Below the pieces are notes generated by a model. That model was not told where the DNA came from, searched no databases, and worked only from the letters and a program-made list of their open reading frames with translations. This document shows, in pieces, positions 1 through 36,227 of a DNA stretch of 46,566 bases (positions are counted from its first letter, which is position 1; each line of letters opens with the position of its first letter). Origin of the DNA: a virus. Location: IMG/VR virus record IMGVR_UViG_3300011445_000031, positions 1 to 46,566 of that record; one strand, given 5' to 3'. Position numbers and translations under genes: made by a program.

Positions 1-123
1 AAAGGTTTTCCTAATGCTATTTTTGATATGGATAGAAGTGGTGCAGTTATAACTTGGTCATATTTCCATAGTCAATCTGTGCCTTTATTGTTAAGATACG
101 TCCAAGACAATGACCTGTGGACA
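1..123. repeat. Terminal overlap, identical to 46444-46566 (circular closure of the contig)
   Basis: Base-by-base comparison of the first 123 nt with the last 123 nt shows identity. The repeat lies in frame inside a coding sequence. Confidence 0.95.
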
Positions 124-2824: not shown

Positions 2825-3528
2825 TAGCAATTCTTGTGCCAAGTAGAGGGCGGCCTGAACAATTTTTAAGATTCCTAGATAGTATACAGAGCCTATCTTC
2901 AGCATTTACGCCAATTAGAATATATAGTGCTCATGATGAAGATGATCCAGTAATAGACGACTATCTAACAATTCATACCTCAATTGCTAATATCCAGTTA
3001 CAGAAGAATGTTAAAACAAGGAAACCTGTACCACAGTTGATGGAATATCTTGGAATGAAAGCTTATAATGATGGCGCAGATTTTATCGTTATAGCCAGTG
3101 ATGATGTTATTTGCACAACGACGGATTGGGATTTAACACTTGTCGAGAAATATAACAGATATAAAGATAAACTTATGGTAGGTTACTTTAATAATGGTTT
3201 TGATAGAAACATGGCAGAACATTATGTAGTATCGAAAGAATGGATTAAGGTTCTTGGATACTACGCACCAATTCAATTTAACCATTTCTATGTAGATTCG
3301 TGGATAGGTGATATTGCAAATAGAGCCGGACGATTGGAATTTTTTAAAGATATAAAATTTAGGCATATGCATTTCAAATATAATCTTGCTGCGTATGATG
3401 ATACATACAAGAGAACAAGAGAAAATGATTTTCCAAGAAAAGATAAAAAAATATTTGATGCAACAGAACCAGCACGAGTTATTGACGCTGAGAGAATAAA
3501 GGCTGCAATATGCGCGTCGGCTTTATAA
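2821..3528 (+). CDS. Glycosyltransferase, GT-A fold (GT2-like)
   Basis: N-terminus MIAILVPSRGRPEQF is typical of GT2-type Rossmann starts, and there is an acidic motif IVIASDDVI. SD AAGGAG is present, and an ATGA overlap with the upstream stop supports the start at 2821. Confidence 0.6.
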   Translation: MIAILVPSRGRPEQFLRFLDSIQSLSSAFTPIRIYSAHDEDDPVIDDYLTIHTSIANIQLQKNVKTRKPVPQLMEYLGMKAYNDGADFIVIASDDVICTTTDWDLTLVEKYNRYKDKLMVGYFNNGFDRNMAEHYVVSKEWIKVLGYYAPIQFNHFYVDSWIGDIANRAGRLEFFKDIKFRHMHFKYNLAAYDDTYKRTRENDFPRKDKKIFDATEPARVIDAERIKAAICASAL

Positions 3529-4382
3529 GTACTGGCACTAATAATGTAATGGCGGTTATAAACAGTGCTAAGTGTATCCCGGAATTTAAACGTATAGAAA
3601 CGCTTATATTCAGCCATCAGGTAGGTAGAAACCAGAATCCAAATATAGCAGATTGGGCACGTAATGAACGGTTAGATTATATATTCTTTATAGGTAGCGC
3701 AGCAGGAACAGACCCAGCGCCAGAGCACTTTATAGCAATAAAGCACATGAATATTCCTTGCTATCATATATGTTTTGATGGTGGAGATAAACCCTGGTGG
3801 CCGCGCCTAGAGCTTTATAAGCAACAATGTCTATTTGACTTACAAGTAAATATAGATGGGTTAAAAGGTAATCCTTGTGACCTAACAACACTATGTCCTC
3901 TTAATCCTGATGATTTTAATCCATTGACAAAAAAGACAATACCATTTGGATTCGCAGGAAACATTAAATCCGCTGTGCGTTCTAATCTTGTTCGGCAGCT
4001 ACAGAATGGCGGATATATACAAGTCCGTGTACGAGATGCTGCTGTTGATTCATTTAAAGACTACTGTAATTTCCTAAACAACTGTAGTGGTATGCTTAAT
4101 ATTAGCTATACAGGTACAGGAAAAGCACACCATGTCAAAGCTAGAATACTTGAAGGAATGTATGCCGGATGTGTTCTTGTCGAAGATGAACGTGCCCCTA
4201 CAAAAGAATACTTTGTGCAAGGAATTGACTACTTATCATATAACGGGACATCAGAAAGCGTTATACGAGCTATTAATGCTACGGGCGTTGTGCTCACAGA
4301 CAGGATTCGAGAGAAAGCCATAGACTTATATGGCCCAAGAGCATTCTATAAACAAATCTTAGGAAAGGGAATATTAGCGTGA
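3510..4382 (+). CDS. Glycosyltransferase, GT-B fold (CgeB/GT1-like C-terminal domain)
   Basis: C-terminal motif KARILEGMYAGCVLVEDERAPTKEYFVQGIDYL resembles the Glyco_trans_1_2/CgeB signature 'R.fE....G..lv...'. The ORF overlaps the previous gene by 19 nt. Confidence 0.5.
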   Translation: MRVGFISTGTNNVMAVINSAKCIPEFKRIETLIFSHQVGRNQNPNIADWARNERLDYIFFIGSAAGTDPAPEHFIAIKHMNIPCYHICFDGGDKPWWPRLELYKQQCLFDLQVNIDGLKGNPCDLTTLCPLNPDDFNPLTKKTIPFGFAGNIKSAVRSNLVRQLQNGGYIQVRVRDAAVDSFKDYCNFLNNCSGMLNISYTGTGKAHHVKARILEGMYAGCVLVEDERAPTKEYFVQGIDYLSYNGTSESVIRAINATGVVLTDRIREKAIDLYGPRAFYKQILGKGILA

Positions 4383-10457: not shown

Positions 10458-10724
10458 GTGACAACAAAAGTTAAATATGAAGATATTAAATTTGTAAATG
10501 AGGAAATACAGAAACTATTCAAAGGTGATTATAAAGATTTCAATGATTGGGAAAGGACGTTTCTAACGGATATGAATGGGTTAATCCAATTAGAAACGCC
10601 CCTTTCCGAAAAGCAAATATACCAGTTATATAAAGCTTATTTTAAACACATAGAAGGTGATGAAAGTGAGGCCGAAGATTGGGCACGAGAACACGGGCTA
10701 ATACATCTTTATAGGCCACGTTAA
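10458..10724 (+). CDS. Hypothetical protein (88 aa), last gene of the rightward arm
   Basis: GTG start with GGGAAAGAGG upstream. Its stop codon overlaps the stop codon of the convergent 1801-aa gene. Confidence 0.55.
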   Translation: MTTKVKYEDIKFVNEEIQKLFKGDYKDFNDWERTFLTDMNGLIQLETPLSEKQIYQLYKAYFKHIEGDESEAEDWAREHGLIHLYRPR

Positions 10725-13700
10725 AATGTATCCTTCAACATCCTACGCAGCGGAGAGTTAGGTTCTAACTTCCGTAATAAGTCGTAGGATGTTCCTTCTT
10801 CTGTTCTACTCATGATCTCATTCATTACAGCATTCCATCCTTTGTTACTTCCACCATGTTGCAGATAGTCTTGTGCTACAGCATCAACTAAGTCATCATC
10901 CATACCACCACCACGTATTGCTGTGCGTAGTTTATTTACTGCTTTCTGCCTATTATCATAATCCGCCGCGCCATAGTAACTATGAAGATTAAGCGCATTA
11001 CGTGTAACTTGTTCTTCCAGTGGTCTAACACTTAACATCCTAGAGACAATACCATTCAATGTCCAAACATCATCACTTGTTGCAACGGTCTGACCTTTCC
11101 TGGTTATGCTTTCACCTGCGACAATTTCAGCCGCACGAGCTATTGGCCTTGAGAGCGTTTGTAACGAAAGACCTTCCATCATACCTTGAAGTTTCCCCTC
11201 AAATCCAGGCTGTTCTACTACGCTTGTTAACATCTTACTCACCGCATTATACACCCCAACAGTGCTATTTACTATTGCAAGGTCGGCCATTTGAGATGGT
11301 ATGCGTGGAGCAATATCTCCGCGAGTGTATAGACTTGGCCCTAAGTTGGAAGGAAGTCCATAAAGAATAATCTCTGCCATAGGATCACCAACTGCTCTAT
11401 ATGTACCTGTAGTAAGATCGTAATTATCTTGGCTCATGTGTTCACCAATGAACTTAGATAACTGTTCATAACCTGGCCAAGATGCTGTACCGAAGATGCC
11501 AGCCTGCATAGCCATTGTGCTTGCGAGATTCTTAAACTGTCCTTTCTCTATATTCCTATATACACTTTGAGCATACGTGATCATGTAAGTCTGGAATAAG
11601 CCAAGAACAGAACCAAAGGTTCCTTGAAACATAGCAGGTCTTTGTGCTGCATGGTAGTTACCTATAACCTTATCAGCCATAGCTACTGCATAGATAGTAG
11701 CACCTCTGTCACTTATTCCTGGATAAGCGTGTTTAGCTGCAAGATACCCAGTAAGCATTGTCTGTGAACGTGTCCATTTCTCTACCCAATCACTTGGTGT
11801 TGATAGAACATTCATAACTCTACTGTTCTGCAATCCTTCCGCCAAGTCTAATAACTCATTTGCCGCGCCTTTCGTAGTTACAGGAACATGCAATTTTCCA
11901 TTAATATCACTGAACTGTCGAACAACCTGATCTATAAGACCTTCAGCTTCCCATTGTTTCTGCATCTCTATTCCCTTTGGATTAAACCTAAAGCGTGCAG
12001 CATCCATAGGAAGCCGTAAAGGAAGCGTAATCTTAGCGCCATTAGCAAGTGCTGTCTTAGGCAATCCTTCCATAAGCGCCGCGTTAGTGAGAATAGGAAG
12101 GCTTATCGCATTAACTAGTGGATGTGCTGCTTCTAAGAACCGAAGCATAAAGGTTCCCATTAATCCATTCGCAGCACTTACAACACGTTTACTGTTAATT
12201 GTAGGAGCACCAATAAGCGATGCTTGATACAATTGGAAAGAACCACTCCATGGGTCTTGTATTCCTTGTTTTGTTAAATCAGCTACAACAGCATCAAAAT
12301 GTTCTTTACTGCCGACAGTCTTTCTGAATATTCTTGTTGTAGCATCAAGTGCTTGACCTGAAGTAACAATAGACATATCTACAAATTCATTAACACTTTT
12401 CCATGTAGTAAATTGATTAAGGTTACTAATACCAAGCAGTGCGTTCTTGGTTGTTATAGCCGCATCTTCAGCTTTCTGTTTATTGAAGCCACGCAGCGGT
12501 TGATTAAGATAGAACTTTTGATTCATCTCACTAAAAGAATCAAGCTTCTGTGTTATATCATTTAGATACATTTCATTGTATTTACGCATACCGCTAAGAA
12601 TCTGATGTTGATAGCCAACCATTATGTCATCAATACGTCGAGCATCAGCAGAGACAATAGCAGTAGCACTTGCACCAGTATGTTTCAGTTGATTGTTCGC
12701 AATCTGCATATACGGTTCACCATCCATATATCCGTGGATAGTATTAAACCTTTCCTGTTGACCTTTTGTGACAATCTCCATTGTAGGATTCTTAACAACA
12801 ATCTCTGCCTTATATGCAGCTTCAAGACTAGCTAAATCCTCTGCTGTATTTGCATACAGAACAGAAGGCCGCTGTTTACCTGTGTTATCAATAACATAAC
12901 TGAAGAACTTATTTGTAAGGTTCGGCGGCGGAAGATAGATTCCTAGGTCATTCAATGGCCCTTGTCCACGTAGTTCTCTATTAAGGTTATGCAATCCTAG
13001 TATTTCAGACGAAGCATTAAACGTTCCAGTCAACGCATTAATCGCTTGCGGTGTTTTTACATAGTAAACACTTCCATCTTGGTTCTTCACAGGAACCTCA
13101 ACAACTTTTCCTTCTCTTACTTCACGCTGAACAACAAAACCAAATCCATTCTCCGGATCGATTCTCCAACCTTTCCATCCTTGTAAGCTAAGTAACTTAT
13201 TCTCAAGAACGTTAAATTCAATTAGTGCCGAATGATTAGCACCCAGGCCTTTAAAAGACTCACCTACAGGTTCTAATATTCGTTTAAGTTGTGCATCCTG
13301 AATATCAGAAACACGCTTACCGATATACGTAACAAGTGGCCCATCTTGTATATTACGTAGAGCATTATCTACTGACTGAAAGAATGGACTTCCTACAAGG
13401 ATATTGTTAACTTCACCAATATTCTGCTTAAGTTGATCCAGCCACATATGCATTTCTTTGGCGGCAGCAGGATCATTTAAAGGACTGTAAAAATCTGCAA
13501 GACTATTAGCAAGCTGATTCTTGTGCTTAGCTGTAACTATACCAACAAATTGCTGATGTGCCGATGACAAAAAGCGTTCGTCAAGAGATGCACTAAGCTT
13601 AACAGGATTAGTAGTAAATGGGTCACCTTGTAATGCTACAATACGATTCTTTTGATTAAGATACTCAGATTCTATCAACTTCGCATCAGTATAACGTCTC

Positions 13701-16126
13701 CAATTAGGAATCTCATCGAGATTACGTCCTGCGCCAACAAGTAAGACAGCTTCTTTCGTAGTATTAAGCCTTGCTGCAATTTCCTCAGGAGCAAAGGTTG
13801 TATCTTTGATAAGCTCACGGATTGCATTTTCCGTTTGTTGTGTATAATGTTGAACAAGTTCTACGCCATTAAGTTTATTCTGTGAACCTGCATTAGGAAT
13901 ATGCACAACTTTATTAGCACCTGTAAGTGTACCTTCAACACCTTCGATGTCTAAACCTGGTAAACGCTTATGATGTGGAGCAGCTACTAGGATTTCGTAT
14001 TCAGAACGGTTACCTTTACCAAATGCACCAATTATATTTTCAACCGGAATTTCAGCAAGTTCTGCTGTACCAAAATTATTAGATACAGATGCCCGTGTAG
14101 AAAATGACTCTACTGACGATGCACCTTTAACTTCTCCACGAACACCGCGATATAAGCGAATATTTCCATTAGCATCAGCTACACTTGCAAGTTCTTGTCT
14201 AAACTTAGCGCCCTTTTCCCAAAGTTCTTCTGCTACAGCGTGCATTGTAGCCCGTTGATTAGTTCCAACGACTTGTACAACATCTCTTTCGGCTGGCAAT
14301 GTTTTACGAAAGTAAGTATCAAATCCTCGTCTTAATCTTGCAATTCCTTCTTTCATACTTACACTACCACCATGTATCCAGTCACTAATAGCTTGACTTG
14401 CTTGTGGTGATACACCAACATCAATAAAAGCAACACGCTTACTTTCAATAATAGCTTCAATATCCTGTAAATGCGTAGCTTTAACACCAGCCGCGCCACT
14501 CTCAATAAAGCGTTTCGTCTGATTAAAACTCGGTAAGCTACTTGTAATATTAAACTGTATTGTCTCTCTTAACTCCGGAGAAACCTTACTAAGCCAACTT
14601 GTTGCTGCGTTAAGTCTAGCCAGGTTATCAGGCGCAATACCGATGTTAACAACATCTGATGCTTTAACTGCTTTACTCCATGCATTGAGTTCATCAAGAA
14701 AAACGGAGTCTTGAACAGCCGAAGGTTTACCACGAGCAGCAGTCTCAATAAAGTAGTCTGCGCCAGGATTCTGTAAGTTAACAGCTTTAGGCGCAGCAGG
14801 CTTATAACCTTTAAGGTCTACAGCTAATGCTGAAGCACCTGCAAGATTTCTGTCGTATAAGTCACCCGTAGATGGACGATAGAAAACAGTCTTAAGTTTT
14901 GTTTTTTCTTTTGTTAGTTTTGCAAGTTCTTCTTTTAAACTAACAACTTTATTCATCGCAGCAATTGGGTCTTTTCCACTATCTTGTTTTAATTTTTTAA
15001 CGAGATTTTCAAAGGCTGGTAAAGCGTTTTCAATTTGACTAATTCTATCAAGAAGTGCTTTCGTAGGTTTCTCCAACATATCAACTTCAAGTGTAAGTCT
15101 ATCACCTTTAGTCTTAGGAATAAAGCTCATCTTAGGAAGCTTAATCTTATCTACACCCATCATCTCTGGCATACCCAATAGTTGCTCAACAGCGCCCTTA
15201 AGCTCTATATAATCACTAGGAACATCTTTACTTTTCGGAGAAAGCCACGGAGCAGCTTCTATAATCCGCTCTTCACGCTTAGCCTTCATGATGGTCAATA
15301 GCTCATCACTAAGGTTCTTAGTAAGTGGATTAACTTCGCTCTTAATAACAGCTTCAAGATTCCTAATAGTCATATTATACGTCTGAACCTGAGCACCATT
15401 AGGTAATGCCTCATTCACATGGATATAGTTACTTCCAACAATAGCTTGTGCTTCAGTCCTAATATCTCCTAAGGCCGCTCTAGCAGCGGAACGTGCTTGT
15501 ATAACACCTAATCCACCACCAATACCAGCACCAACTGTAGCCCATAAAGCAAAGTTACTATACGGAGACTCCATATAATCTTCCATATATGGATGGGCAT
15601 TAAGCGCACCTACAGTAGCCATCTCAAATATTGCCGCATCAATTACGTTTTCACCAATCTTTGCAGCATATAGCTTCTTCATTGTATCTGAGTAGATCTT
15701 CGTATCATACTTAGCATTTTCCATTAATACACGAAGATCTGACTGCAATGCTTGTGCCTTTGTTCCTGCAAAAACGTCACTTACAGCAGCAGCAAGACTA
15801 TTGCTTTTACCTAAAGCGGTCATTCCATTTTTAGCAAAGCCAAGTAGTTTAATCGTTGCAGCTTGTGGAGCGACAATACCAGCTAAGAAACTAGCAGCTT
15901 CTACACCTTCTCTGTGTTCACCATAAAATGAAAGCGCATCAGCATCGGCTTTTTGTAGAATATCCTGTGTAGATAATTCAGGCCCACCAACAAGACCTAC
16001 AGTACTATTCCATACTGTCGAAAGAAAGTCTGCACCTGTAGATACAATTGCGTTCTTAGCTCCACCAATAATAGAAGCTGCAGCATTACCTGCGATGTCT
16101 TTATCTTCAATATAATCTAAAGGCAT
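10721..16126 (-). CDS. Giant internal virion / ejection protein (1801 aa) with an embedded ADP-ribosyltransferase domain
   Basis: It is the last and largest gene of the late operon. It has Gly-rich hydrophobic N-terminal segments (WATVGAGIGGGLGVIQA). The R-S-ExE signature lies at aa ~658-711. Confidence 0.6.
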   Translation of the reverse strand: MPLDYIEDKDIAGNAAASIIGGAKNAIVSTGADFLSTVWNSTVGLVGGPELSTQDILQKADADALSFYGEHREGVEAASFLAGIVAPQAATIKLLGFAKNGMTALGKSNSLAAAVSDVFAGTKAQALQSDLRVLMENAKYDTKIYSDTMKKLYAAKIGENVIDAAIFEMATVGALNAHPYMEDYMESPYSNFALWATVGAGIGGGLGVIQARSAARAALGDIRTEAQAIVGSNYIHVNEALPNGAQVQTYNMTIRNLEAVIKSEVNPLTKNLSDELLTIMKAKREERIIEAAPWLSPKSKDVPSDYIELKGAVEQLLGMPEMMGVDKIKLPKMSFIPKTKGDRLTLEVDMLEKPTKALLDRISQIENALPAFENLVKKLKQDSGKDPIAAMNKVVSLKEELAKLTKEKTKLKTVFYRPSTGDLYDRNLAGASALAVDLKGYKPAAPKAVNLQNPGADYFIETAARGKPSAVQDSVFLDELNAWSKAVKASDVVNIGIAPDNLARLNAATSWLSKVSPELRETIQFNITSSLPSFNQTKRFIESGAAGVKATHLQDIEAIIESKRVAFIDVGVSPQASQAISDWIHGGSVSMKEGIARLRRGFDTYFRKTLPAERDVVQVVGTNQRATMHAVAEELWEKGAKFRQELASVADANGNIRLYRGVRGEVKGASSVESFSTRASVSNNFGTAELAEIPVENIIGAFGKGNRSEYEILVAAPHHKRLPGLDIEGVEGTLTGANKVVHIPNAGSQNKLNGVELVQHYTQQTENAIRELIKDTTFAPEEIAARLNTTKEAVLLVGAGRNLDEIPNWRRYTDAKLIESEYLNQKNRIVALQGDPFTTNPVKLSASLDERFLSSAHQQFVGIVTAKHKNQLANSLADFYSPLNDPAAAKEMHMWLDQLKQNIGEVNNILVGSPFFQSVDNALRNIQDGPLVTYIGKRVSDIQDAQLKRILEPVGESFKGLGANHSALIEFNVLENKLLSLQGWKGWRIDPENGFGFVVQREVREGKVVEVPVKNQDGSVYYVKTPQAINALTGTFNASSEILGLHNLNRELRGQGPLNDLGIYLPPPNLTNKFFSYVIDNTGKQRPSVLYANTAEDLASLEAAYKAEIVVKNPTMEIVTKGQQERFNTIHGYMDGEPYMQIANNQLKHTGASATAIVSADARRIDDIMVGYQHQILSGMRKYNEMYLNDITQKLDSFSEMNQKFYLNQPLRGFNKQKAEDAAITTKNALLGISNLNQFTTWKSVNEFVDMSIVTSGQALDATTRIFRKTVGSKEHFDAVVADLTKQGIQDPWSGSFQLYQASLIGAPTINSKRVVSAANGLMGTFMLRFLEAAHPLVNAISLPILTNAALMEGLPKTALANGAKITLPLRLPMDAARFRFNPKGIEMQKQWEAEGLIDQVVRQFSDINGKLHVPVTTKGAANELLDLAEGLQNSRVMNVLSTPSDWVEKWTRSQTMLTGYLAAKHAYPGISDRGATIYAVAMADKVIGNYHAAQRPAMFQGTFGSVLGLFQTYMITYAQSVYRNIEKGQFKNLASTMAMQAGIFGTASWPGYEQLSKFIGEHMSQDNYDLTTGTYRAVGDPMAEIILYGLPSNLGPSLYTRGDIAPRIPSQMADLAIVNSTVGVYNAVSKMLTSVVEQPGFEGKLQGMMEGLSLQTLSRPIARAAEIVAGESITRKGQTVATSDDVWTLNGIVSRMLSVRPLEEQVTRNALNLHSYYGAADYDNRQKAVNKLRTAIRGGGMDDDLVDAVAQDYLQHGGSNKGWNAVMNEIMSRTEEGTSYDLLRKLEPNSPLRRMLKDTF
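10737..10793. other. Extended hairpin at the convergence point of the two arms (candidate bidirectional 3'-end structure)
   Basis: AACATCCTACG (10737-10747) pairs with CGTAGGATGTT (10783-10793). Inside it, CGGA pairs with TCCG and AGTTAG with CTAACT around a GTT loop. Confidence 0.4.
13967..14419 (-). other. ADP-ribosyltransferase (R-S-ExE, C2/C3/VIP2-like) domain inside the 1801-aa protein
   Basis: Translation reads ...NIRLYRGVRGEVKGASSVESFSTRASVSNNFGTAELAEIPVENIIGAFGKGNRSEYEILVAA. The triad is LYRG (Arg), SFST (Ser-Thr) and EYEIL (ExE). Confidence 0.6.
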
Positions 16127-17847
16127 TAGCCTCTCCTTGCACCAAGAACACCAGTAGGAATTTTATCAGGTTTATTAAGCTCATCTTGTGGTGATGCAGG
16201 TGTATTTGTCTTAAACAAATCTTGCACTCGAACTAAACCTTCACCAATAAGTGCATCAGGAATAACACTCAATGGCCCAACAAACCTACCAATACTCATT
16301 TGGTCACGAACATACGATGACATCGCACGATTTCTAACATCTGCTGCATAACTAGCTAGATAATTCTCAGCAGATGGAAGAATAGCAGAAGCCTTATCAT
16401 TTCCCATAGTAATTCCAAGGGATTGAACAAGTGCGCTAATCTTCTGTTGCGGAGACATTACAGAACCATCGGGATTCTTCATCTCAGCCTTGATAACAGC
16501 ATCTACACCATCACTCATTAAGACCTTACCATCTTTGTTATTAAGCTTTACACTATCAACAACAGCCTTAAGTTGTGGATCTTGGAATGTCCAAGCATCC
16601 ATACGTTGATAACGCTGTCGTGCTGTAGCTTCTATTTCAGAATTAAGTACTTCAAGAAGCATGTTAGTTTTAGTTTCTGTTTTAGATTTATCACCAAGAG
16701 CTTGGTTTGTTTTCCTAGTTCCTTCTTTCAGCCGTTCTTTTGATTGCGCGGAAAGAGCACTTAAACGAACACCACTAATTAAAGCTTCACGATTAGCTAC
16801 AAGTGGTTCTAATGCCGTAATATAATCAGGAAGTTTATCTTTTGGTCCAAGTCCTAAAGCTGCACGTTCTTGTCCTGCAAGTATCTTATACGCATATTCA
16901 CGCACTTGTATATCAGCATCTACAAGAAAACGCGGAAGTGTCTGCTTATTGGCATCAAGTACAGTAGCTAGTGCTTTATCTTTAACTAGACTACGATGAA
17001 CTTGAGGGACAATAGAAGTATCTGCCTTAGCAAGACCTAAAGCAAGCTGAGCATTTCTAAGTCTATCATCTGTCATAACACCAAAGCGCTCTTCATTTCT
17101 ATCAGCACGATCTTGTCGCTTGTCAATCTGTGCAAATTCTTTAGTTACAAGTGCACGATAGTCATTAATTCGCTGAAATTCAGGATCTTTCTTAAGTAAA
17201 TCTGCCTCAAGTTGATTCGCTGCTTGTAGCGCATTAGTATAAGCTTTCCTGGCATTTTCAGTTTGCATAGTAGTATCACCAGGACGAATCTTACCTGTTT
17301 GCACAGCAGCAGCATCAAGCGCAATATTCTTATCTAATGCCATCTGAGCATCATTAACACCTGAGCGTTGTGCAGACTGTGTCCTTATACGGTCTTGAAT
17401 AACCGTAGCTTGTTGTCCTAGATTCACAAATAGTAACTGTGCAGCATCTTCACGTTCAGTTACATCTTGAATAGAACGTAACTTCCTGAATTCATTTTCT
17501 ACGTTAAACTGTGGAGTACCAGATGTGAAAGCATTTGTAACTTTTGGAATATCAATATCATGGACTGGCGCGGCTTCTGTTGTTATAGACGTAGTCCCAT
17601 CTTTATTGATAACCTTAGTTCTACCGAATGACGCAATAACACGCTCACCAGGTTTCACAACATAATCAGGTGTTTGCGGAACTGTTCCAACTTCAATATT
17701 CGTGCTTTCAGTTCTAGCTTGTGCTAGTTTCCTTTCTTGCTCAGCTTGAGAACTAAGTATCTGTTCTTGCAAGACAGCGGCAAATTGCATACGAACATCA
17801 AGTTCGCTAGTGCTTTGTGCACCGTCATTAACAGGGGCTTCAGCCAT
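16126..17847 (-). CDS. Putative internal virion / ejection protein (573 aa, helix-rich)
   Basis: TAATG overlap with the 1801-aa gene. It is rich in Q/A/E/K helical segments. The call rests on position only. Confidence 0.4.
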   Translation of the reverse strand: MAEAPVNDGAQSTSELDVRMQFAAVLQEQILSSQAEQERKLAQARTESTNIEVGTVPQTPDYVVKPGERVIASFGRTKVINKDGTTSITTEAAPVHDIDIPKVTNAFTSGTPQFNVENEFRKLRSIQDVTEREDAAQLLFVNLGQQATVIQDRIRTQSAQRSGVNDAQMALDKNIALDAAAVQTGKIRPGDTTMQTENARKAYTNALQAANQLEADLLKKDPEFQRINDYRALVTKEFAQIDKRQDRADRNEERFGVMTDDRLRNAQLALGLAKADTSIVPQVHRSLVKDKALATVLDANKQTLPRFLVDADIQVREYAYKILAGQERAALGLGPKDKLPDYITALEPLVANREALISGVRLSALSAQSKERLKEGTRKTNQALGDKSKTETKTNMLLEVLNSEIEATARQRYQRMDAWTFQDPQLKAVVDSVKLNNKDGKVLMSDGVDAVIKAEMKNPDGSVMSPQQKISALVQSLGITMGNDKASAILPSAENYLASYAADVRNRAMSSYVRDQMSIGRFVGPLSVIPDALIGEGLVRVQDLFKTNTPASPQDELNKPDKIPTGVLGARRG

Positions 17848-17856
17848 TGTCTCTCC

Positions 17857-18942
17857 TTAATCCTCAATTATTACGTTAGAACCACCGCCATAAATAAATT
17901 CTGCTTGCTCATATACTGGTTCTTGTGCATTAGCTACAACATATCCAGTTCCAGCAGCACTAGATGGCGTATAAGCAGGTGATGCTTGAATCATTGCTTG
18001 TGGTGTAGCAACAGCAGGTGTGCCTACCTGTTTATTTGTATTGACAGTATTACCAGTAGTTACAGCCGTCTGATCCGTTATTCCAGTTGTATTTTGATTT
18101 ACATTCGTTACGCTACTAGATACACCACTTGTTTCGATACCTTTTGCAGTATTAAGCGCAGCAATCAACTGATTTGCAATACTGTTCGGGTCATTCTTTG
18201 TAAGTTCTTCAAGAATAGCAGCAAATTGAGTATTGATCCCGCCATAAGCTACAGCAGCATCTAAACCAACCTTAGCCGCACTTTCAGAACTTCTGGCTAC
18301 AGCTTGCTGTGTAAGTAAAGAACGTGCAGTTCCTTGTGAAGCACCAGCACCTTCTGCACCACGTAAGATTGACGGCATCTGCTGTTCAGTAAGAACTCTC
18401 GTAAAGTAATTAGTAAGTTCTTTCGCATCAGCAAATGCAGCTTCTTTACTATATCTATCTTGGCTGCTACGTCCACGTTCGATTTCTTTTTGTCTCTCGG
18501 CTGCAAGTGCCTTTTGTTCTATTGTTCCACCAGCAACCATACCACCACTCTTAACATATTCTGTCTGCCTTGCTTTTTGTTGTGTATTAAAAAGATTTGC
18601 TTCTGTCTGAGACATAGTAAGACCAGTCGTTGGATTACGAAATATCCATCCACTACGTGAATACTGCGCTTGTGCTATTGGAAACTTAGCAGCAGCTTCC
18701 TCAGCACTAATAACTGGACGATCTTGTAACTGTGCAATCAGGCTATTAAGAGCATCCCGCGCCGCAGGTGTTGTATTAAGTGAATAGTTACTTGCAACAG
18801 TCGCATTGGTTCCTGTTGTGTTACTGGTAGTAGTTCCAGTAGTGTTTGTAGTAGATGGGCCAGTTTGTGCTGTTTGCTGATAACTTTGCTCTGTCCCATA
18901 TGGACTAACAGGTAGCCCAGTGTTTCTATCAACTGCTGCCAT
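17857..18942 (-). CDS. Putative internal virion protein (361 aa) with Thr/Asn-rich termini
   Basis: The N-terminal tract is TTNTTGTTTSNTTGTNATVASNYSLNTT, and there is a similar C-terminal T/N/V-rich tract. The call rests on position in the ejection-protein block. Confidence 0.4.
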   Translation of the reverse strand: MAAVDRNTGLPVSPYGTEQSYQQTAQTGPSTTNTTGTTTSNTTGTNATVASNYSLNTTPAARDALNSLIAQLQDRPVISAEEAAAKFPIAQAQYSRSGWIFRNPTTGLTMSQTEANLFNTQQKARQTEYVKSGGMVAGGTIEQKALAAERQKEIERGRSSQDRYSKEAAFADAKELTNYFTRVLTEQQMPSILRGAEGAGASQGTARSLLTQQAVARSSESAAKVGLDAAVAYGGINTQFAAILEELTKNDPNSIANQLIAALNTAKGIETSGVSSSVTNVNQNTTGITDQTAVTTGNTVNTNKQVGTPAVATPQAMIQASPAYTPSSAAGTGYVVANAQEPVYEQAEFIYGGGSNVIIED

Positions 18943-18965
18943 AATAATTCTCCTTAATGCGTAGA

Positions 18966-21923
18966 CTACCGCTTTCCTTTTTTGTGACCATTAAAGTCAA
19001 GGTTCTTAATATCGTAGATTCCATTTATTACGATATTAAACCATCTTGCACTATTTGAAAAGTATTCAGTTACCTCGTTAACATCCGTATAACTGCGAGT
19101 TTGTGATATAGCAGGTTCTATATTCTTACCATCTAAAGAACCTTCTACAGTTACATTTCCTGTAGCTAGATTTCTGAATTGTATACGTACTTCCTCGCAG
19201 TCTGTGAATCCTTTACGGAAGTATCCAATCTTGCCGATCTTAATAATACTATCGGCTGGATACTTGTCAAAGAGTGCTAGAGTTCCATCGTCAAGTAAGC
19301 AACCTGCGCTTACACTGAAAATATCAGCAGGAATTGGCCTATCACCTGCTACACTATTTATAGGACTATAGTTAAGTAGCCGCTTGAATGGCTGTCCACA
19401 CTTACCCCATTTCTTATATTGTAAGTCATAAACAAATGCACCTTGATACGTTGGATATATTGGCTCAATAGAACCATCTTGCATTAAGAATGACGAAGGT
19501 GGTAAGGTTATAGTTTGGTCAGGATACGTAAATAGTTCACTAAGTATCGTAACTTCCTGTGCAACACAGGCTTGTCCTGTGCCTGTTCCTATTGGAACGC
19601 CCATTACATGTGCTTGCCGTATCTTTGCAGGATTAGTAAGGCATATATCTTCATAATCAGGAGCTTCAGGTGTTGAATCATCAACAAAGAAGTTTCCTAA
19701 CAAATCATAATGTCCATGTCCCTTAATATGTGTATAACCAAGTTCTTGATATACACAAGTTTCAAAATCAACAGGACGAAATACAGGTTGCCCAAATGTT
19801 TGCGTTACAATAGCATATGTATCTGGGGGAAATGGATTACCAGCGTATGGTGCCATTAATGCTGTTATATCTTCATCATTATCTGCACGTTTTGCTCCAA
19901 AATCAATACGACAACACTTAGGTGATGTACCAGGAGAACCATCAGGCTCATATGCTGGGCCAGGAGGAATACCTACGCTTGAATACCAAACTTGTGTTAT
20001 TCCAGTTCCAACCATTACAGTAAAATAAAATGTACTACAAGCACCACAACTTGCTGGCCCTGAAAGTCCAGAGATAGTTGTACCAAGTCCAGATAGATGT
20101 CCATTAAAGAAATCACCTACATATGCGGGTGATGGTAAACTACCACCATAATCCGCCGTTGTTGTCATTAAAATAGGTGTACTATAGCTAATATCATAGT
20201 TGACTGGTATGTCAACATAGAAACCTTTTGTAAGACTACGTTGTAACCAAGCACTCTTTTCAGCTTGACCATACCATTTGTTTGCTTCAGAAAAGAACGA
20301 TAGATCAAGATATGGTCCAAAACTTTGTATACCACTTGCTGGAACTGTTCCTAAATCCATTACACCTTCAATAGTAATCGGTGCGTGTACTTTATCTAGT
20401 ATTGCCTTCTTCCAACTTTCCTGAAACGCTGCTTCATACATCCACAAGAAATCTTGCTTAGCATAGAAGTCATCTGTATTTTCTTCTGTTGTTTCATCTG
20501 CAGCAAATCCAGCAACAAGCGGCATATTAACCGATGTAGCTGGAATAAAGAATTCTGTTCCACTTCCATCTATTTTTGTAATACCGCCATTAGCAAAAGC
20601 TACGCTACTAAAATATAAACTATCGCCAAAACTTCCAGAACCATACGTTTTCCATGAAAGAAGCGTAGCTGCTGGAACACCTGTTGATAGTATATCTTCC
20701 CAAATAGGAACTTGTCCAGGAGATACAGCTTGTGTATATGACGTGTAACCATATGTAGTATATAGATAGTTTTCTTCAAAACTACTGTCGATACTACCTA
20801 AAGCCAAGCATGGATTATCTTCTATATGCGCTATATTGTAACTTGCGCCTTTAAATGTAAATGTTGTAGAAGGCACACTTACGTAGCTGAAGTTAGGTAT
20901 TCCAAGAACATAGTTAGCATTAATAAACTCTAAAAACAAATATCGGCCTTCTAACACACGCACAAATATCGGATCTCTTGTTTCTTTCAGGTAACTGAAA
21001 ACCTCAGGAATAATATACTCAGCAATACCATTCTCAATCTTAATTAGACCAAATGTTGTATAAGCAAAATGTGTTGTATCCGGTTGACCTGTTGTCGCTT
21101 GGCCAAGATAACTAAGGCCGTTTTCATTAAATACTGTCTCACTAGCCCATAGGAAGTTTGCATCAGCATTACGCTTCACATGGACAATAGACCTAGTGCA
21201 GTAAACCATGAAACCGTTACCGTGTTGTAGGCATACAGTAATCTTACCAACAATATGCTGGAATATAGCCGCGCCAACACCTGTTTCTAAGTCAGGTACA
21301 AAATCCATCTTATCATCAATATCAGACCATGCAATACTGTTTGCACTATCCCAGATACCTAAGCGGCCACCAGCTTTAAATATCCCTTGTTGAGCTGGCA
21401 TATTCAAGTTACTTGATGGGGTCAATACAGTAGGAACAAAGTCCTCTGCTGCTCTCATTACCCATACATTCAATTCACCTGCACGATAGATATAAACCTC
21501 ATTACCTATTACACAGTATGTGTAGTTTTTATGGACACCACTTGCTGGGACAGTTAAGGCAATAACCTTGTCCCATGCACCTGTTGAAGCTGCATACTTT
21601 GTGTATATACCATCCTCACAAAGAGCAACCATTGTATTCTGGAGTGTTAGTCCTTGGACAACAAAGACATCATCTACGTTAAGAAGTGCAAATGGTGTTG
21701 TTAACCCAGTTAACGGATTGACATTAAGTATACTATTAATTCCGAAATAACTCATATAACCATATGCAGTTGGCATAAAGTTATAACCGTCATAAGGCAC
21801 TACAGGAATGCGTCCTTCAGGAGCATCCTCTGCTTGTGTAGAGTGCATAGACTCCGGAAAGCTATTCGGGTCTATAGGAATATAGCTTCTACTTATGTCA
21901 ATGAGTTTAACAGTTTGTGCCAT
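18966..21923 (-). CDS. Tail nozzle / tubular-B-like protein (985 aa)
   Basis: By size and position it resembles podoviral nozzle proteins. The N-terminal segment RIPVVPYDGYNFMPTAYGYMSYFG recalls the P22 gp10-type 'Y.DYLPVNM...GYLRSFPG' start, from memory. Confidence 0.4.
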   Translation of the reverse strand: MAQTVKLIDISRSYIPIDPNSFPESMHSTQAEDAPEGRIPVVPYDGYNFMPTAYGYMSYFGINSILNVNPLTGLTTPFALLNVDDVFVVQGLTLQNTMVALCEDGIYTKYAASTGAWDKVIALTVPASGVHKNYTYCVIGNEVYIYRAGELNVWVMRAAEDFVPTVLTPSSNLNMPAQQGIFKAGGRLGIWDSANSIAWSDIDDKMDFVPDLETGVGAAIFQHIVGKITVCLQHGNGFMVYCTRSIVHVKRNADANFLWASETVFNENGLSYLGQATTGQPDTTHFAYTTFGLIKIENGIAEYIIPEVFSYLKETRDPIFVRVLEGRYLFLEFINANYVLGIPNFSYVSVPSTTFTFKGASYNIAHIEDNPCLALGSIDSSFEENYLYTTYGYTSYTQAVSPGQVPIWEDILSTGVPAATLLSWKTYGSGSFGDSLYFSSVAFANGGITKIDGSGTEFFIPATSVNMPLVAGFAADETTEENTDDFYAKQDFLWMYEAAFQESWKKAILDKVHAPITIEGVMDLGTVPASGIQSFGPYLDLSFFSEANKWYGQAEKSAWLQRSLTKGFYVDIPVNYDISYSTPILMTTTADYGGSLPSPAYVGDFFNGHLSGLGTTISGLSGPASCGACSTFYFTVMVGTGITQVWYSSVGIPPGPAYEPDGSPGTSPKCCRIDFGAKRADNDEDITALMAPYAGNPFPPDTYAIVTQTFGQPVFRPVDFETCVYQELGYTHIKGHGHYDLLGNFFVDDSTPEAPDYEDICLTNPAKIRQAHVMGVPIGTGTGQACVAQEVTILSELFTYPDQTITLPPSSFLMQDGSIEPIYPTYQGAFVYDLQYKKWGKCGQPFKRLLNYSPINSVAGDRPIPADIFSVSAGCLLDDGTLALFDKYPADSIIKIGKIGYFRKGFTDCEEVRIQFRNLATGNVTVEGSLDGKNIEPAISQTRSYTDVNEVTEYFSNSARWFNIVINGIYDIKNLDFNGHKKGKR

Positions 21924-22965: not shown

Positions 22966-24312
22966 TTAACCAACAAATGTATGAGATGATGCTCCACCAC
23001 CACCGCCAGCTTCTTGTCTTTGTACTGCACCTATATCAAGATAACCAATACTTGCACTACCTAAGAATGTACCTGGAAAACCAACAGCTTTTGCAGGACT
23101 TCCAGATGCTATACCAAAGTTACCACCAGCAGCATCAGTAAATTGTGGGTCAGTTGTAAGCTCTGTTCCAGCAAGATTGGCATTTACGGTTAAGTTATTT
23201 AGGTTTGTGCCACTTGACCGATAGAAGATATTATAGGCATGAAAACCTAACAAATCAGCCTGGTTTGTTCCTGGAAATTCGCTATTAAACGATGTTGAAC
23301 CATTTCCATTTTCCGCAATAATAGAATTTAGTATCGTAAATATAGCGTCATCATCAGCAGCTTCAACGCCAGAATCATCATTATCCCATATTGTACAACC
23401 AAATAAAAGCGTTTGATGTGTTATTGTTGATGGCGCACCACTATGATAGACACCACGACCTGTATTACTTTCAATTATTGAAAAGAAAAGTTGTGGGCCA
23501 CCATTGTTTGCTGTATTCCTTACTCCATCAGAAGCGTTGTTATGTAAATACACACCAAGATACGAACCGCCTGTTGTTGATAATCCCTGGCCAGCCGAAC
23601 CACTTGCTTCACAATTTAGCGTTAAACCAGCGCCACATAGAATAGCTCCACCTGAACCTGAATCAGTTACTTTAACATTATGGTTAACACCATCAGAAGC
23701 ACCAGTTGTAAAACCAACTCCGGTTGATCCATCACAATCAAGCTCAAAGTTGTCAATAAACCACAAACCATGTGAATTTGAAATATTTAATGGCGTAGTA
23801 TTACCTGTAGTATTTAAAACTGGGCGTACTCCCGCTTTGCCCATTACTGTAATTCTTCCGCCTGTTTTATCTCCTGAATTACGTGAGCTAAATAACGCGC
23901 CAACTTGGGCAGCAGGACTATTATTATATATAACTACATCACCAGCACGTGTAAATGCTTCTTCACCAGATAATCCTGCGCCAGTAATTTGGCCACCAAT
24001 ATTTCCAGTACTTGCTCCAGCAGTAAGACCAGTTGGTGCTACAGTAACAGTGATCGTTTTCGGAGAAGCAGCATTATCAACACCAGAAATCCAAAAGATA
24101 TCTTGTGTAGTATTAGTGGCATCAGTAAAATTAACACTATCCTGGTTTGCACCACTTGTATTTAATACAGATAAATCATGGGCTTCAACAATAGGAATTG
24201 TTGTTCCACCTGCGTATGTAGCATGAACTGTAATAGCATATAATGCAGAAGCAGAATCTCTAGAGCCGCTATTATTTGCATTACCACCACTGTCTACATA
24301 GCACTTTCCCAT
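22966..24312 (-). CDS. Right-handed beta-helix tailspike / depolymerase-like protein (448 aa)
   Basis: Repetitive G/S/T/N/D-rich turns (NNASDGV, WDNDDSGVE, GSGGAILCGAG) are typical of pectate-lyase-fold repeats. The gene lies in the tail gene block. Confidence 0.55.
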   Translation of the reverse strand: MGKCYVDSGGNANNSGSRDSASALYAITVHATYAGGTTIPIVEAHDLSVLNTSGANQDSVNFTDATNTTQDIFWISGVDNAASPKTITVTVAPTGLTAGASTGNIGGQITGAGLSGEEAFTRAGDVVIYNNSPAAQVGALFSSRNSGDKTGGRITVMGKAGVRPVLNTTGNTTPLNISNSHGLWFIDNFELDCDGSTGVGFTTGASDGVNHNVKVTDSGSGGAILCGAGLTLNCEASGSAGQGLSTTGGSYLGVYLHNNASDGVRNTANNGGPQLFFSIIESNTGRGVYHSGAPSTITHQTLLFGCTIWDNDDSGVEAADDDAIFTILNSIIAENGNGSTSFNSEFPGTNQADLLGFHAYNIFYRSSGTNLNNLTVNANLAGTELTTDPQFTDAAGGNFGIASGSPAKAVGFPGTFLGSASIGYLDIGAVQRQEAGGGGGASSHTFVG

Positions 24313-30417: not shown

Positions 30418-31641
30418 TTACGCGTCAGCAACACCAGTTTGTAGACTGTAGATGATAGCGCATCCTTGCGGATTGATGAGTTCAACAGCAAACTCAGTAG
30501 TAAGAGAACCACCATCAGCATCTACACCGTTTGCATTATTACGTCCAGCACCACCATAATCCTCAGCACGTGTATCACGACCTTCCATATATGCAAGCTT
30601 CAAAGCAGGCATATCTATAATCATTGCCAAACCAGCCATGGAAGGAATACCGTTAAGGATAGGATGTTCAATCATGTAGATGGTACCTTTGTAGAACACA
30701 AACTTAGTAAAATGCAAGCCAAAGGTTGTTTGTCCATCTTGAATGAACACTTGTCCACTCTTTCGTGCAAGGTCATTTATTACTTTGATTGCCGTAGAAC
30801 CACCAAACAACGTGCGTGACTTTGGATCACCAATATCTGCACTGTATTGGAAAGCAGGTTCAACTAGTGTTACAAATTGGCTGAAGGATGTAGTAGTCGC
30901 AGCAGTATTGGTGTTATTCGGCGCATATTGTTCTACTGCGTCGATAATACCTTGCGTAGCGTGCAATGGCTGAGAACCAGTAGTATCCATCTTCGGTTGT
31001 CCAAAGATAATGGCACTTTCCATATTTACGCTATGCAATAAGGAACAATCACGGCGACTTTCTGCGATATTACCTACACCCATCTCAACATAAGATGCGC
31101 GAGCTGTATCTGTAACTGCCCAAGCATCTCTGAAGATTTGCGTATAGTTAGGAACGTGAATCATTGTAAGACCACGCTCAGTCGGACGCGCTGAACCTTC
31201 TTCAAACGCATTACCAATTACTACAAGTGTTGCACCGTTGGCAATTGTTCCTGCAGCTACACGACCAAATGCACGCGTTACTGTTAGTGTAACACCATCA
31301 GGAACAGCAGTAACACGCAAGTTTTCACGTGTAGTAGGATTGTGAAGCACCATCTTTGGAAGAATACCAGTAGTATCTGTAACAACTAAGGATGTAGCAG
31401 ATACACCATAACCAGCCGGAGAAGATGCTTGGTTAATTACAACACTTGAAAATAGAAGAGTCTTAGAGAAATAACCGTGTGCAGAAGCTTTTGCTAAGCT
31501 ACGTCCTGTTTGGCTTGTAAGCGCGAAAATTGGTGCTGAACCATTAGGAAACAAACGTAGAATATGACTAGCAAAACTTCTCTTATTGAGTTCTACAGGG
31601 TTATCTGCGTTCGTATTGAATACACCAGTATAAAAAGCCAT
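30418..31641 (-). CDS. Major capsid protein
   Basis: 407-aa ORF directly after the scaffold gene, with a strong SD (TAAGGAG). Size and order match the usual portal-scaffold-capsid arrangement. Confidence 0.75.
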   Translation of the reverse strand: MAFYTGVFNTNADNPVELNKRSFASHILRLFPNGSAPIFALTSQTGRSLAKASAHGYFSKTLLFSSVVINQASSPAGYGVSATSLVVTDTTGILPKMVLHNPTTRENLRVTAVPDGVTLTVTRAFGRVAAGTIANGATLVVIGNAFEEGSARPTERGLTMIHVPNYTQIFRDAWAVTDTARASYVEMGVGNIAESRRDCSLLHSVNMESAIIFGQPKMDTTGSQPLHATQGIIDAVEQYAPNNTNTAATTTSFSQFVTLVEPAFQYSADIGDPKSRTLFGGSTAIKVINDLARKSGQVFIQDGQTTFGLHFTKFVFYKGTIYMIEHPILNGIPSMAGLAMIIDMPALKLAYMEGRDTRAEDYGGAGRNNANGVDADGGSLTTEFAVELINPQGCAIIYSLQTGVADA

Positions 31642-32523: not shown

Positions 32524-32797
32524 CTGACTTCTCCTTATGTGTGAAGTTAAGTAATGTGTTAGCCATGTGCATTATCCCTTTTTGATAGGCTAATTCTAAA
32601 AGGAGTTTTACATTGCCATTTAAGTCTGACAACTTATCATATGGATAAGCCGCCTGTTCAAAAATGGCGGTCATACCCATAATACGCAGATATTTAACAA
32701 TAACTGGGTTCTGTAACAGTTTCGCAAGTTCTTGTTCTTCTGTTTCCGTAAGTTTACCAATTACGTCTGTTAGATCATTCTCTTTATACTGCGCCAC
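32507..32797 (-). CDS. Hypothetical head-assembly-module protein (96 aa)
   Basis: GTG at 32797 is preceded by AGGAGG (caAGGAGGcaacaGTG). It overlaps the portal 3' end by 14 nt. The track start at 32887 would overlap the portal gene by 104 nt. Confidence 0.5.
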   Translation of the reverse strand: MAQYKENDLTDVIGKLTETEEQELAKLLQNPVIVKYLRIMGMTAIFEQAAYPYDKLSDLNGNVKLLLELAYQKGIMHMANTLLNFTHKEKSDGPAS

Positions 32798-34736: not shown

Positions 34737-36227
34737 TTAAAATGCAGTATTGTTTGTTCGGACGCCAATACGACCTTTCTTAGGATTAATCTCTTTCATA
34801 GTCATTAGAATTTGATCCCAATATTCAGCTCGTACATCTAGAATATATGCACCATCATCAAGCCAATCGTCTTTATTATCCTTCTTATCTACTTTATATG
34901 CTAACGCTTGCCATAAAATCTTGTTTCTTATTGCACCATATACGTGACAAGTACCAGCAAGAATCTCTTTTATCCATGCAATGATACGAAATAGTTTCTT
35001 TCGACCTGCTGGAGATAATTCTACAACTTGTATATGCGGTAAGTTTTGATCTGCAATGTATTTCTCAAGCCAAAACTTAAGTGTTTGTTGATAAGCTGTT
35101 GTTTCAACACCGATAATACTAAGATTATAGTGTATACAGTATTCAAGTGCCTGTATAATTACCTTTTCCGGGTCAACTACACCACCCATTCCATCAGCAA
35201 ATACTGTATTACTATCGTCCATTACTAAATGTACACCTACGATATTCTCATCTGATAAGACACGATAACCTGCTGGATCAATTATTACACAACCACCAAT
35301 AGCTCTTTCTTCTATATCTGTTTCTGTATAAGGACATGCAGGTAGGAGACCATCTGGAAGTAGAGATGTCTTTTGTTCAATTGGGTCATTCATCATCTCT
35401 GCAAACCACACATGACCCTGGCCAAGAGATACGTCATTCTTAAAACTATCAAATAGAGCATCTACAGGATGCAATTCAGGCCATAATGAAGAACCATCAG
35501 CTAATATACAACCTGTGATAAGAGAAATCCAACTCTTGCTATCACGCAAGGAAGCCAACATACAAGTACCAGCGTACATATTACCTACGTAGATTATAAG
35601 TGCTCCTTGTGGGTCAATCAGCTTTAAGAATGTACCAGCAAAGCGAGTATAAAATGCTTTACTCTCTGTATCTGAGGCCGCGCCCTCTGGTGTTTGAGCA
35701 TCATCAAAGAATAGAATATCAGGACGTTCATTCTTAATGTTAAGTCCACGAACATTACTATTAAAACCAACAGCTACAAGTACACGTGGCTTGTTCCTAT
35801 ATAGACAAGTTTTCTGTTCCTTGTTATTTATGGCTTTATTAATAGTCCATTTACCATAAACTTTCTCCATATTGGGAGAACCAAGGATCTCATCTATATC
35901 ATTCAGTAGATTGTAAGCTAAAGGCTCATCTGCACAGACTACAAGAGCAAAATTCGCGTAATCATAACAAATGAACCAACAGATAAGTATCTTTATGAAC
36001 GTTGTTTTAGCAAAGCCGCGCGGAAGTCCTAATGCAAAGCGTAATACTCTAGCTCTTTCCTGTTTTGTGCGCGCCGCAACAAGCATTTGCCATATATAAA
36101 GATACCATATTGGAAACGGATAATCTAATATAAGTGGTAATGCAAGCCTTGAGAAGAAATCAAAATCATGATGCCCACGTTTGAATGCATCAAGTTGATC
36201 AATTTGTTCAGTTACTATTTCGGGCAC
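34737..36227 (-). CDS. terL: Terminase large subunit
   Basis: Walker A-like segment LGLPRGFAKTTF and Walker B-like PDILFFDDAQ. Nuclease-domain acidic motifs are CVIIDPAG and IGVETTAYQ. Size and position fit. Confidence 0.85.
   Translation of the reverse strand: MPEIVTEQIDQLDAFKRGHHDFDFFSRLALPLILDYPFPIWYLYIWQMLVAARTKQERARVLRFALGLPRGFAKTTFIKILICWFICYDYANFALVVCADEPLAYNLLNDIDEILGSPNMEKVYGKWTINKAINNKEQKTCLYRNKPRVLVAVGFNSNVRGLNIKNERPDILFFDDAQTPEGAASDTESKAFYTRFAGTFLKLIDPQGALIIYVGNMYAGTCMLASLRDSKSWISLITGCILADGSSLWPELHPVDALFDSFKNDVSLGQGHVWFAEMMNDPIEQKTSLLPDGLLPACPYTETDIEERAIGGCVIIDPAGYRVLSDENIVGVHLVMDDSNTVFADGMGGVVDPEKVIIQALEYCIHYNLSIIGVETTAYQQTLKFWLEKYIADQNLPHIQVVELSPAGRKKLFRIIAWIKEILAGTCHVYGAIRNKILWQALAYKVDKKDNKDDWLDDGAYILDVRAEYWDQILMTMKEINPKKGRIGVRTNNTAF

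Follow-up and report, generated by a model that had tools for sequence, protein, structure and literature searches.

A conserved domain in a giant ejection-type phage protein is probably a compressed relative of the T4 Mod ADP-ribosyltransferases

The Alt protein of bacteriophage T4 is an ADP-ribosyltransferase (ART) of the R-S-ExE type that is synthesized late and enclosed in the head; injected along with the DNA, it modifies the host RNA polymerase and other proteins (PMC5512222, PMC9503650). Among podoviruses, only about 3% had an ART in a systematic survey (PMC9503650). Podoviral homologues of the internal virion protein IVP-D variably host lysozyme domains and enzymes destined for the cytoplasm, the N4 virion RNA polymerase and a methylase among them (Hardies et al., PMC4819975). 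Here we analyze a viral DNA of 46,566 nt (IMG/VR record IMGVR_UViG_3300011445_000031, positions 1 to 46,566; the whole stretch is hereafter called the window) that encodes a late protein of 1801 amino acids (aa). Residues ~622-720 of this protein probably constitute a new, compressed, Mod-like ART of the R-S-E clade, carried by a protein of the podoviral ejection type. The analysis shows a real, conserved domain that is homologous to the ARTs of the Mod family and keeps the R, S and E residues; we infer that it uses nicotinamide adenine dinucleotide (NAD+), that it is catalytically active and that it is packaged and injected to act on a host target.

The giant protein is encoded on the minus strand by the final gene of the virion module (10721..16126, from the list of open reading frames [ORFs] and their translation). 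A preliminary description of the window had singled out a segment of this ORF as a classical R-S-ExE ART; that segment (13967-14419, minus strand) corresponds exactly to aa 570-720, and the sequence quoted for it was correct. Within the segment, the ART-like core extends from aa 622 to aa 720 (13967..14263, minus strand), as delimited by a structural model, by an island of conservation at aa 631-720 and by profile alignment to the Mod family. Three motifs, all on the minus strand, characterize the core. An aromatic-Arg-Gly motif, L658-Y-R660-G661 (14144..14155), lies in predicted strand 1 and aligns with L-Y-R73-G of T4 ModB. An S-x-[ST] motif, S674-F-S-T (14096..14107), lies on predicted strand 2 and is followed by a short helix (..SVSNNF). 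The ExE motif, E709-Y-E711 (13994..14002), closes the loop that leads into predicted strand 5. The relevant codons are found at 14147-14149 (R660), 14105-14107 (S674), 14000-14002 (E709) and 13994-13996 (E711). When the 1801-aa protein was shuffled 5000 times, the composite pattern [YFW]RG..S[YFWM][ST]..E.E[IVLW][IVL][IVL] was never reproduced; the R-S-ExE motif set is not due to chance. The domain is nonetheless small. R660 and S674 are 14 aa apart and S674 and E711 37 aa apart, within a core of ~100 aa, against 26 and 74 aa in T4 ModB, 24 and 69 aa in ModA and 25 and 73 aa in Alt. Thus, the motifs and their order are as first described, whereas their spacing, which had been called right, is not that of the known enzymes (14/37 aa versus ~25/70).

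Profile comparisons connect the domain to the Mod family. With every filter disabled, a hidden Markov model (HMM) built from 58 domain sequences was used to search 495 six-frame ORFs taken from the window, from 18 kb of T4 and from three related phages. The sole outside match was T4 ModB, with 17.0 bits and an E-value of 1e-4; the next best sequence scored 3.9 bits. The domain was also aligned by hhalign to a profile of ten diverse Mod-family sequences from T4-like phages. This yielded a probability of 94.1% (E 1.3e-7, score 48.6), while none of 21 controls (the reversed Mod alignment, 12 column shuffles and 8 block shuffles) exceeded a score of 19.6 and a probability of 2.6%. In the confident part of the alignment, LYR660G is superimposed on LYRG of Mod, with R660 on ModB R73, and V-E-S674-F-S-T on the invariant V-x-S-F-[ST]-T (ModB S99), along with the A..FA helix that follows. 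Changing R73 of ModB to Ala abolishes both ADP-ribosylation and RNAylation (PMC10468400). The residues invariant in the ten Mod-family sequences are R, G, S, A, F, Y, E and E. E709-Y-E711 aligns with ModB E171-Q-E173 only in a looser, low-confidence extension, where Mod contains two inserts absent from the window domain, one of ~12 aa between the Arg and the Ser and one of ~35 aa between the Ser helix and the ExE. HMM and hhalign comparisons with the catalytic domain of T4 Alt and with ModA alone were not significant, the hhalign probability for Alt being 0.6%. Judging from the family profiles, the domain is homologous to the established R-S-ExE ART family of T4 ModA and ModB, in keeping with the class to which it had been assigned at the outset.

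Some distant homologues (designated here by P numbers) also resemble a second ART family. Sub-threshold matches to the Pfam family DRAT (PF07357) were obtained in P0150, P0132, P0095 and P0106, with E-values from 3e-5 to 0.19, and they fall exactly on the region matched by the domain profile. The best of them, in P0150 (E 3e-5), reaches 23.8 bits for a cut-off of 25. The window protein itself has no DRAT match in Pfam. As a separate observation concerning the Mod family, Klebsiella phage vB_Kpn_AM_K4 (289 kb) encodes a 124-aa "hypothetical protein" (880-1254 of locus L016) that matches only the N-terminal half of ModB (aa 36-142, E 6e-8). By its similarity, this may be a truncated Mod-like gene.

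Conservation sets the domain apart from its surroundings, which belong to the variable half of the giant protein. In an alignment of 82 giants, aa 631-720 form an island of 2.0-2.2 bits per column, while the flanks fall to 0.57 (aa 601-630) and 0.81 (aa 721-750); on this alignment, the pattern is that of a separate globular domain with variable linkers on either side. Residues A650, D651, G654, L658, R660, G661, G668, S674, F685, E711 and V714 are invariant in the central part of a four-way alignment. To collect homologues, word-indexed searches with the 58-sequence profile were unproductive and one with the central 370 aa found nothing; a megablast of the giant gene against phage genomes likewise gave no match. 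A full-length query and an exhaustive search of representatives did work. The latter, in which the domain profile was run against 1.84 billion representative proteins, returned 180 proteins at E ≤ 0.001. Giants of 1.6-2.5 kaa, in which the domain keeps its relative position, account for about 90 of them; about 60 others, small (150-460 aa) or multidomain, bear the module. The Arg is kept in 89/91 giants, the Ser in 82/91, a Ser or Thr two residues further in 83/91, the second Glu in 90/91 and the first Glu in 56/91. The corresponding figures for the small homologues are 63/63 (Arg), 62/63 (Ser), 49/63 (first Glu) and 56/63 (second Glu, the rest being gaps). Across these alignments, the catalytic-type residues are strongly conserved.

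The small, phage-type homologues (P0083-P0161) look like an unannotated ART family in their own right, to judge by the R-S-ExE residues that some 60 of them carry. Of 57 classified, 38 fall in PHROG 4776 and 24 in PHROG 25265, both of unknown function, and 12 are fused to an HD/HDIG phosphohydrolase; NCBIfam and PHROGs recognized in them only HD/HDIG and families of unknown function. The genomic context of two solo homologues was uninformative. Larger proteins show the module in other company. In P0082 (3601 aa), the ART-like domain (561-698) is immediately followed by an InPase domain (PF18823, 719-853), and a methyltransferase domain is present in addition, while P0075 (2467 aa) carries LPD38; InPase and LPD38 were both defined in polyvalent proteins. 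In P0106 two copies of the module accompany a weak MuF match, and in P0132 a GNAT domain is added. The possibility that the module is itself a MuF domain was discarded, as the Phage_Mu_F match in P0106 lies elsewhere in that protein. These four architectures suggest that the module is a portable effector, repeatedly attached to virion-delivery scaffolds. The extra domains of P0082 and P0075 further suggest that the scaffold has a variable cargo slot.

The structure of the domain was predicted with AlphaFold2 (AF2) using the 58-sequence alignment. The model had a predicted local distance difference test (pLDDT) value of 86.2 and a predicted template modelling score of 0.76, with 73 of its 114 residues at or above a pLDDT of 90. 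The predicted elements are, in order, two helices, beta1 (LYRG), beta2 (ESFST), a short helix, beta3, beta4, an 8-residue loop ending in E-Y-E, and beta5 (EILVA). In this model, the order of the strands is that expected for an R-S-E core. The segment that precedes the core (aa 575-621; 14264..14404, minus strand) is predicted to be helical: in AF2 model 1, helices occupy positions 2-11 and 17-33, with pLDDT ~80. It includes W583, which is almost invariant; conservation is low at aa 601-630, just ahead of the core. In Foldseek searches of the PDB, the top match in both runs was CNFy, represented by entry 6yhn (domains 4-5) at E 0.11 and by entry 6yhl (residues 1-704) at E 0.054, with a probability of 0.95 and a template modelling (TM) score of 0.42. 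Since the two entries share only domain D4, the match presumably lies in D4, which is ART-like. With the first model, weak matches at E 1-6 included the PARP domains of RCD1 and SRO1, Certhrax, OspC3 and tankyrase. Among viral predicted structures, true homologues were followed by a WWE-domain protein of Bodo saltans virus and the PARP-like protein 100L of an iridovirus, both weakly matched. Structure prediction, put forward in the preliminary description as a check, thus gave a confident model with a compatible order of strands, while in the PDB it retrieved as top match only CNFy. On these models, the fold evidence for an ART is only suggestive but goes in the right direction.

The protein that carries the domain looks like an ejection or internal virion protein with a central cargo domain. 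PHROGs places it in PHROG 16165, of unknown function. Full-length homologues with 28-30% identity occur in Polaromonas phage Tiera, EBPR podovirus 3 and Pseudomonas phages 119X, PaP2, PaMx41 and Ph_15, and full-length queries found metagenomic relatives with up to 70% identity. By annotation alone, the homologues are a "structural protein" in the PaMx phages and an "ejection protein" in Ph_15. A strongly conserved N-terminal block (aa 31-210; 15497-16036, minus strand) contains an invariant P179-x-M-E-D-Y (HPYMEDYME) and matched no known family. Conservation is highest at the opposite end, in the C-terminal 360 aa (aa 1441-1800, from the 82 aligned homologues). Part of this C-terminal module (aa 1429-1620; 11267..11842, minus strand) bears a weak similarity to the PLxRFG "tail-700" domain of NCBIfam (NF032893), at E 5e-8 and 31.9 bits, under the cut-off of 100. 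PLxRFG is a marker of the 495-kDa giant proteins of Lastavirus podophages (PMC9505181). Pfam and NCBIfam scans left a single recognizable domain of enzymatic type in the 1801-aa protein. Pfam detected neither a muralytic domain in the protein nor a nucleic-acid- or RNA-binding module adjoining the ART-like domain.

The genome around this gene is complete. The first and last 123 bases of the window (1-123 and 46444-46566) are identical, which closes the sequence into a circle of 46,443 bp with 38% G+C; the same contig is present in ENA as ERZ27267686 (46,584 bp). Among the large ORFs are those for DNA polymerase, primase, a Dda-like helicase, portal, terminase, capsid and virion proteins. On the minus strand, the genes for the terminase (34737-36227), portal (32784-34703) and major head protein (30418-31641) are followed by further structural genes, then by three genes for proteins of 985, 361 and 573 aa (16126..21923) and, at the end, by the giant gene. 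In PHROGs, the 361-aa protein matches PHROG 16266 and the 985-aa protein PHROG 16563 ("virion structural protein"). The gene order is matched in Tiera, EBPR podovirus 3 and Ph_15, and Tiera has podovirus morphology (PMC9959647). It fits the T7-type arrangement, in which tail genes are followed by internal virion proteins, the largest coming last. The earlier view of the giant as a virion or ejection protein therefore holds as regards its position, last in the virion module, and the annotation of its homologues, while packaging and injection are deduced from this resemblance. By analogy with such proteins, the 1801-aa protein probably enters the cell along with the DNA and modifies proteins of the host there. 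Two sub-threshold similarities were noted elsewhere in the genome: a 290-aa early-region protein (3510-4382, plus strand) resembles glycosyltransferases (PF13524, 9e-5), and a 448-aa late protein (22966-24312, minus strand) resembles DUF5123 (3.4e-7).

How the genes of this phage are transcribed bears on what an injected modifier might do. The preliminary description held that the phage encodes no RNA polymerase and relies on consensus host promoters, and both statements were supported. No RNA polymerase is recognizable in the complete genome. Two perfect sigma-70 consensus promoters (TTGACA-17-TATAAT, 12/12) are located on the minus strand at 38157-38185 and 37309-37337, and an 11/12 match lies on the plus strand at 38673-38702; they sit in the divergent control region (36.8-38.7 kb) between the leftward and rightward gene blocks. 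Lack of its own RNA polymerase together with the presence of sigma-70 promoters makes it plausible that the phage depends on the host enzyme from the first minute. Such dependence makes a modifier acting at entry an attractive idea, without identifying its target.

A number of observations weigh against an active enzyme delivered in this way. The span from the Arg to the catalytic Glu measures only 51 aa, about half that of Mod or Alt, and so compressed a domain may be short of parts that an NAD+ pocket requires. The alignment with Mod is confident over its first half only, from the Arg to the helix after the Ser. No fold match lies below E 0.05, TM-scores are ~0.4, and D4 of CNFy, the best of the matches, is an ART-like domain without detectable NAD+ binding or activity (PMC7883292). 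Ser674 is replaced by Gly in the nine closest relatives (VEGYT where the window has V-E-S-F-S-T); these include P0002-P0005 (~70% identity), P0008, P0009 and P0016, and they retain the Arg, the Thr and the ExE. The first Glu gives way to N, R, S, D, Q or K in 35/91 giants (~40%). As for the sequence databases, no ART family was found by Pfam, NCBIfam or PHROGs with either the whole protein or the domain, and the models named in the preliminary description (ADPrib_exo_Tox and Alt-like) gave no match in the window protein. PDB sequence searches reached no solved ART, whether the query was the single domain, one of two domain profiles, a profile of the small homologues or P0150; HAMP, Rrp7 and haemagglutinin coiled coils, which they did return, were set aside as noise. 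The qualifier "classical" thus does not suit a compressed domain that ADPrib_exo_Tox, NCBIfam, PHROGs and PDB sequence searches all fail to detect, and the proposed likeness to iota/C2 toxins was reproduced by no search. In a control, Pfam identified T4 Alt (ADPrib_exo_Tox, 5.8e-36) but nothing in ModA and ModB, which are proven ARTs, so that its silence on the window domain carries little weight. Finally, we infer the presence of the 1801-aa protein in the virion and its ejection from gene order and annotation, and its C-terminal similarity to ejection proteins is below threshold.

Part of this evidence would suit a module that derives from an ART but is catalytically inert and has a structural role, in folding, in docking to the capsid or portal, or in binding host proteins without chemistry. 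Its half size, CNFy D4 as the best structural match, the replacement of Ser674 by Gly in the nearest relatives and the variability of the first Glu all speak for such a module. Inert relics, however, normally lose their catalytic residues. Here, the Arg and the catalytic Glu are nearly invariant among giants that are otherwise 25-30% identical, and they are kept in all ungapped stand-alone small homologues; moreover, the module is portable across unrelated architectures (MuF-linked, GNAT-linked, HD-linked and solo), as is typical of effector enzymes. We consider inertness unlikely. It is very improbable that the likeness is coincidental and that an unrelated small alpha/beta domain happens to present R, S and E in this order. 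Such a coincidence would account for the failure of any curated ART model or solved ART structure to match at standard thresholds and for a spacing unlike that of all characterized R-S-E enzymes examined, but not for a Mod profile match (94%) far above the scrambled controls, for ModB being the only outside match among 495 ORFs or for the independent DRAT matches on the same region in distant homologues; besides, the functional residues of both families align. Conservation of these residues across diverged proteins and unrelated architectures is the main argument against both readings. Another alternative keeps the ART fold active and NAD+-using but changes the chemistry, to RNAylation, ADP-ribosylation of nucleic acids, or hydrolysis of NAD+ or NAD-derived immune signals on entry. 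ModB, the closest characterized relative, does RNAylate host proteins by attaching NAD-capped RNA (PMC10468400); the R-S-E/H-Y-E clades comprise macromolecule modifiers as well as NADases, and virion-packaged NAD/ADP-ribose enzymes have been proposed to counter immunity (PMC9503650). The HD phosphohydrolase fusions of the small homologues point the same way, as does the replacement of the first Glu in giants that keep the catalytic one. The first Glu of the ExE in ADP-ribosylating turn-turn (ARTT) loops tunes acceptor specificity. Against a different chemistry, the window protein has the full ExE, typical of arginine-specific enzymes, and no nucleic-acid- or RNA-binding module was detected beside the domain; no sequence feature discriminates among the chemistries invoked. 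Overall this alternative strikes us as rather unlikely, and the odds moderately favour an active, compressed Mod-like ART delivered with the DNA.

If the domain is such an ART, R660 in strand 1 and S674 in strand 2 would hold NAD+. The catalytic glutamate would be E711, placed where strand 5 begins, behind an ARTT-like loop, and a preference for arginine acceptors would come from E709. The conserved N- and C-terminal modules of the giant protein would provide the scaffold and its central part the cargo. The carrier would be taken into the head and, at infection, leave through the tail, placing the ART domain in the cytoplasm at the time of DNA entry, where it would mono-ADP-ribosylate host proteins. 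Because this phage lacks an RNA polymerase, candidate targets would be the RNA polymerase of the host, the translation machinery or a protein involved in defence.

Injection of an ART has a precedent, being established for T4 Alt, a myovirus protein; it is the domain family, its minimal size and the scaffold that hosts it that appear undescribed. Literature searches for ARTs housed in ejection proteins or internal virion proteins turned up no similar case. Should the domain prove active, the Alt-like strategy of modifying the host on entry would extend to a podovirus lineage devoid of RNA polymerase, and a minimal R-S-E scaffold of ~100 aa would become available, informative on what an NAD+ pocket needs. 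A function would also be assigned to ~90 representative giants and to PHROGs 4776 and 25265, now labelled "structural" or "hypothetical". These predictions are directly testable, for homologues with all the catalytic-type residues are present in cultivable P. aeruginosa phages already used in studies of anti-phage defence. More tentatively, and less likely than not, the window domain could be the founding example of an uncurated family of half-size R-S-E ARTs that sit as cargo in the middle of giant ejection proteins of podoviruses, among them the laboratory Pseudomonas phages 119X, PaP2 and PaMx41, and that also occur as solo, HD-fused, GNAT-fused and MuF-linked phage effectors. Such a family would act at DNA entry in phages lacking an RNA polymerase, and the variable first Glu would diversify its acceptors, possibly toward RNAylation or the neutralization of defences.

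How, then, does the window domain compare with described systems? The Mod family is the only established one with significant profile similarity to it. Both are phage-encoded and they share the motif forms L-[YW]-R-G, V-x-S-[FY]-[ST]-T with the A..FA helix, and E-x-E-[WIV]-[ML]. They differ in setting, for the Mod proteins are stand-alone enzymes of ~200 aa encoded beside srd and mrh in T4-like myoviruses, whereas the window domain occupies ~100 aa inside an 1801-aa podoviral late protein; the size and spacing typical of Mod (~200 aa, R-S ~25, S-E ~70) are not found in it. To DraT (dinitrogenase reductase ADP-ribosyltransferase, PF07357) there is a likeness through distant homologues only. DraT serves cellular regulation and has DraG as its partner; no gene resembling that for DraG was seen in the window. 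T4 Alt shows local likeness in its motifs (LYRS, VSTS, EMEVIL). The analogy with Alt is functional only, the window protein having no PF03496 match at E-values up to 10 and no detectable sequence relationship to Alt; failure of both the Pfam and the hhalign tests indicates that the window domain is not a member of the Alt/VIP2 group. Furthermore, Alt is a dedicated myovirus protein of 682 aa, while the window domain sits in an ejection-type scaffold.

Polyvalent proteins offer a parallel in architecture. Their ARTs (Tox-ART-HYD2, N4-like) are NAD+-using effector domains inside giant, virion-delivered proteins (PMC5512222), a setting like that proposed for the window domain, but their active site is H-Y-D, not R-S-E, and this difference of type indicates that the window domain is not a polyvalent H-Y-D ART. 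ARTs of the R-S-E (Alt/VIP2) type are stated to be absent from genuine polyvalent proteins (PMC5512222). The parallel drawn in the preliminary description is thus apt for the architecture and imprecise as to the ART. P0082, with its ART-like, InPase and methyltransferase domains, and P0075, with LPD38, do fit the polyvalent class, while the window protein has one recognizable domain of enzymatic type. The window protein also resembles T7 gp16/IVP-D in being the largest of its module and encoded last, after the tail genes and those for the smaller internal proteins; no significant sequence match to IVP-D accompanies this resemblance, the sub-threshold PLxRFG match being the only one. In conclusion, going by sequence the domain is nearest by descent to T4 ModA and ModB; in function it would be like T4 Alt, and in architecture its carrier is like the polyvalent and IVP-D proteins.

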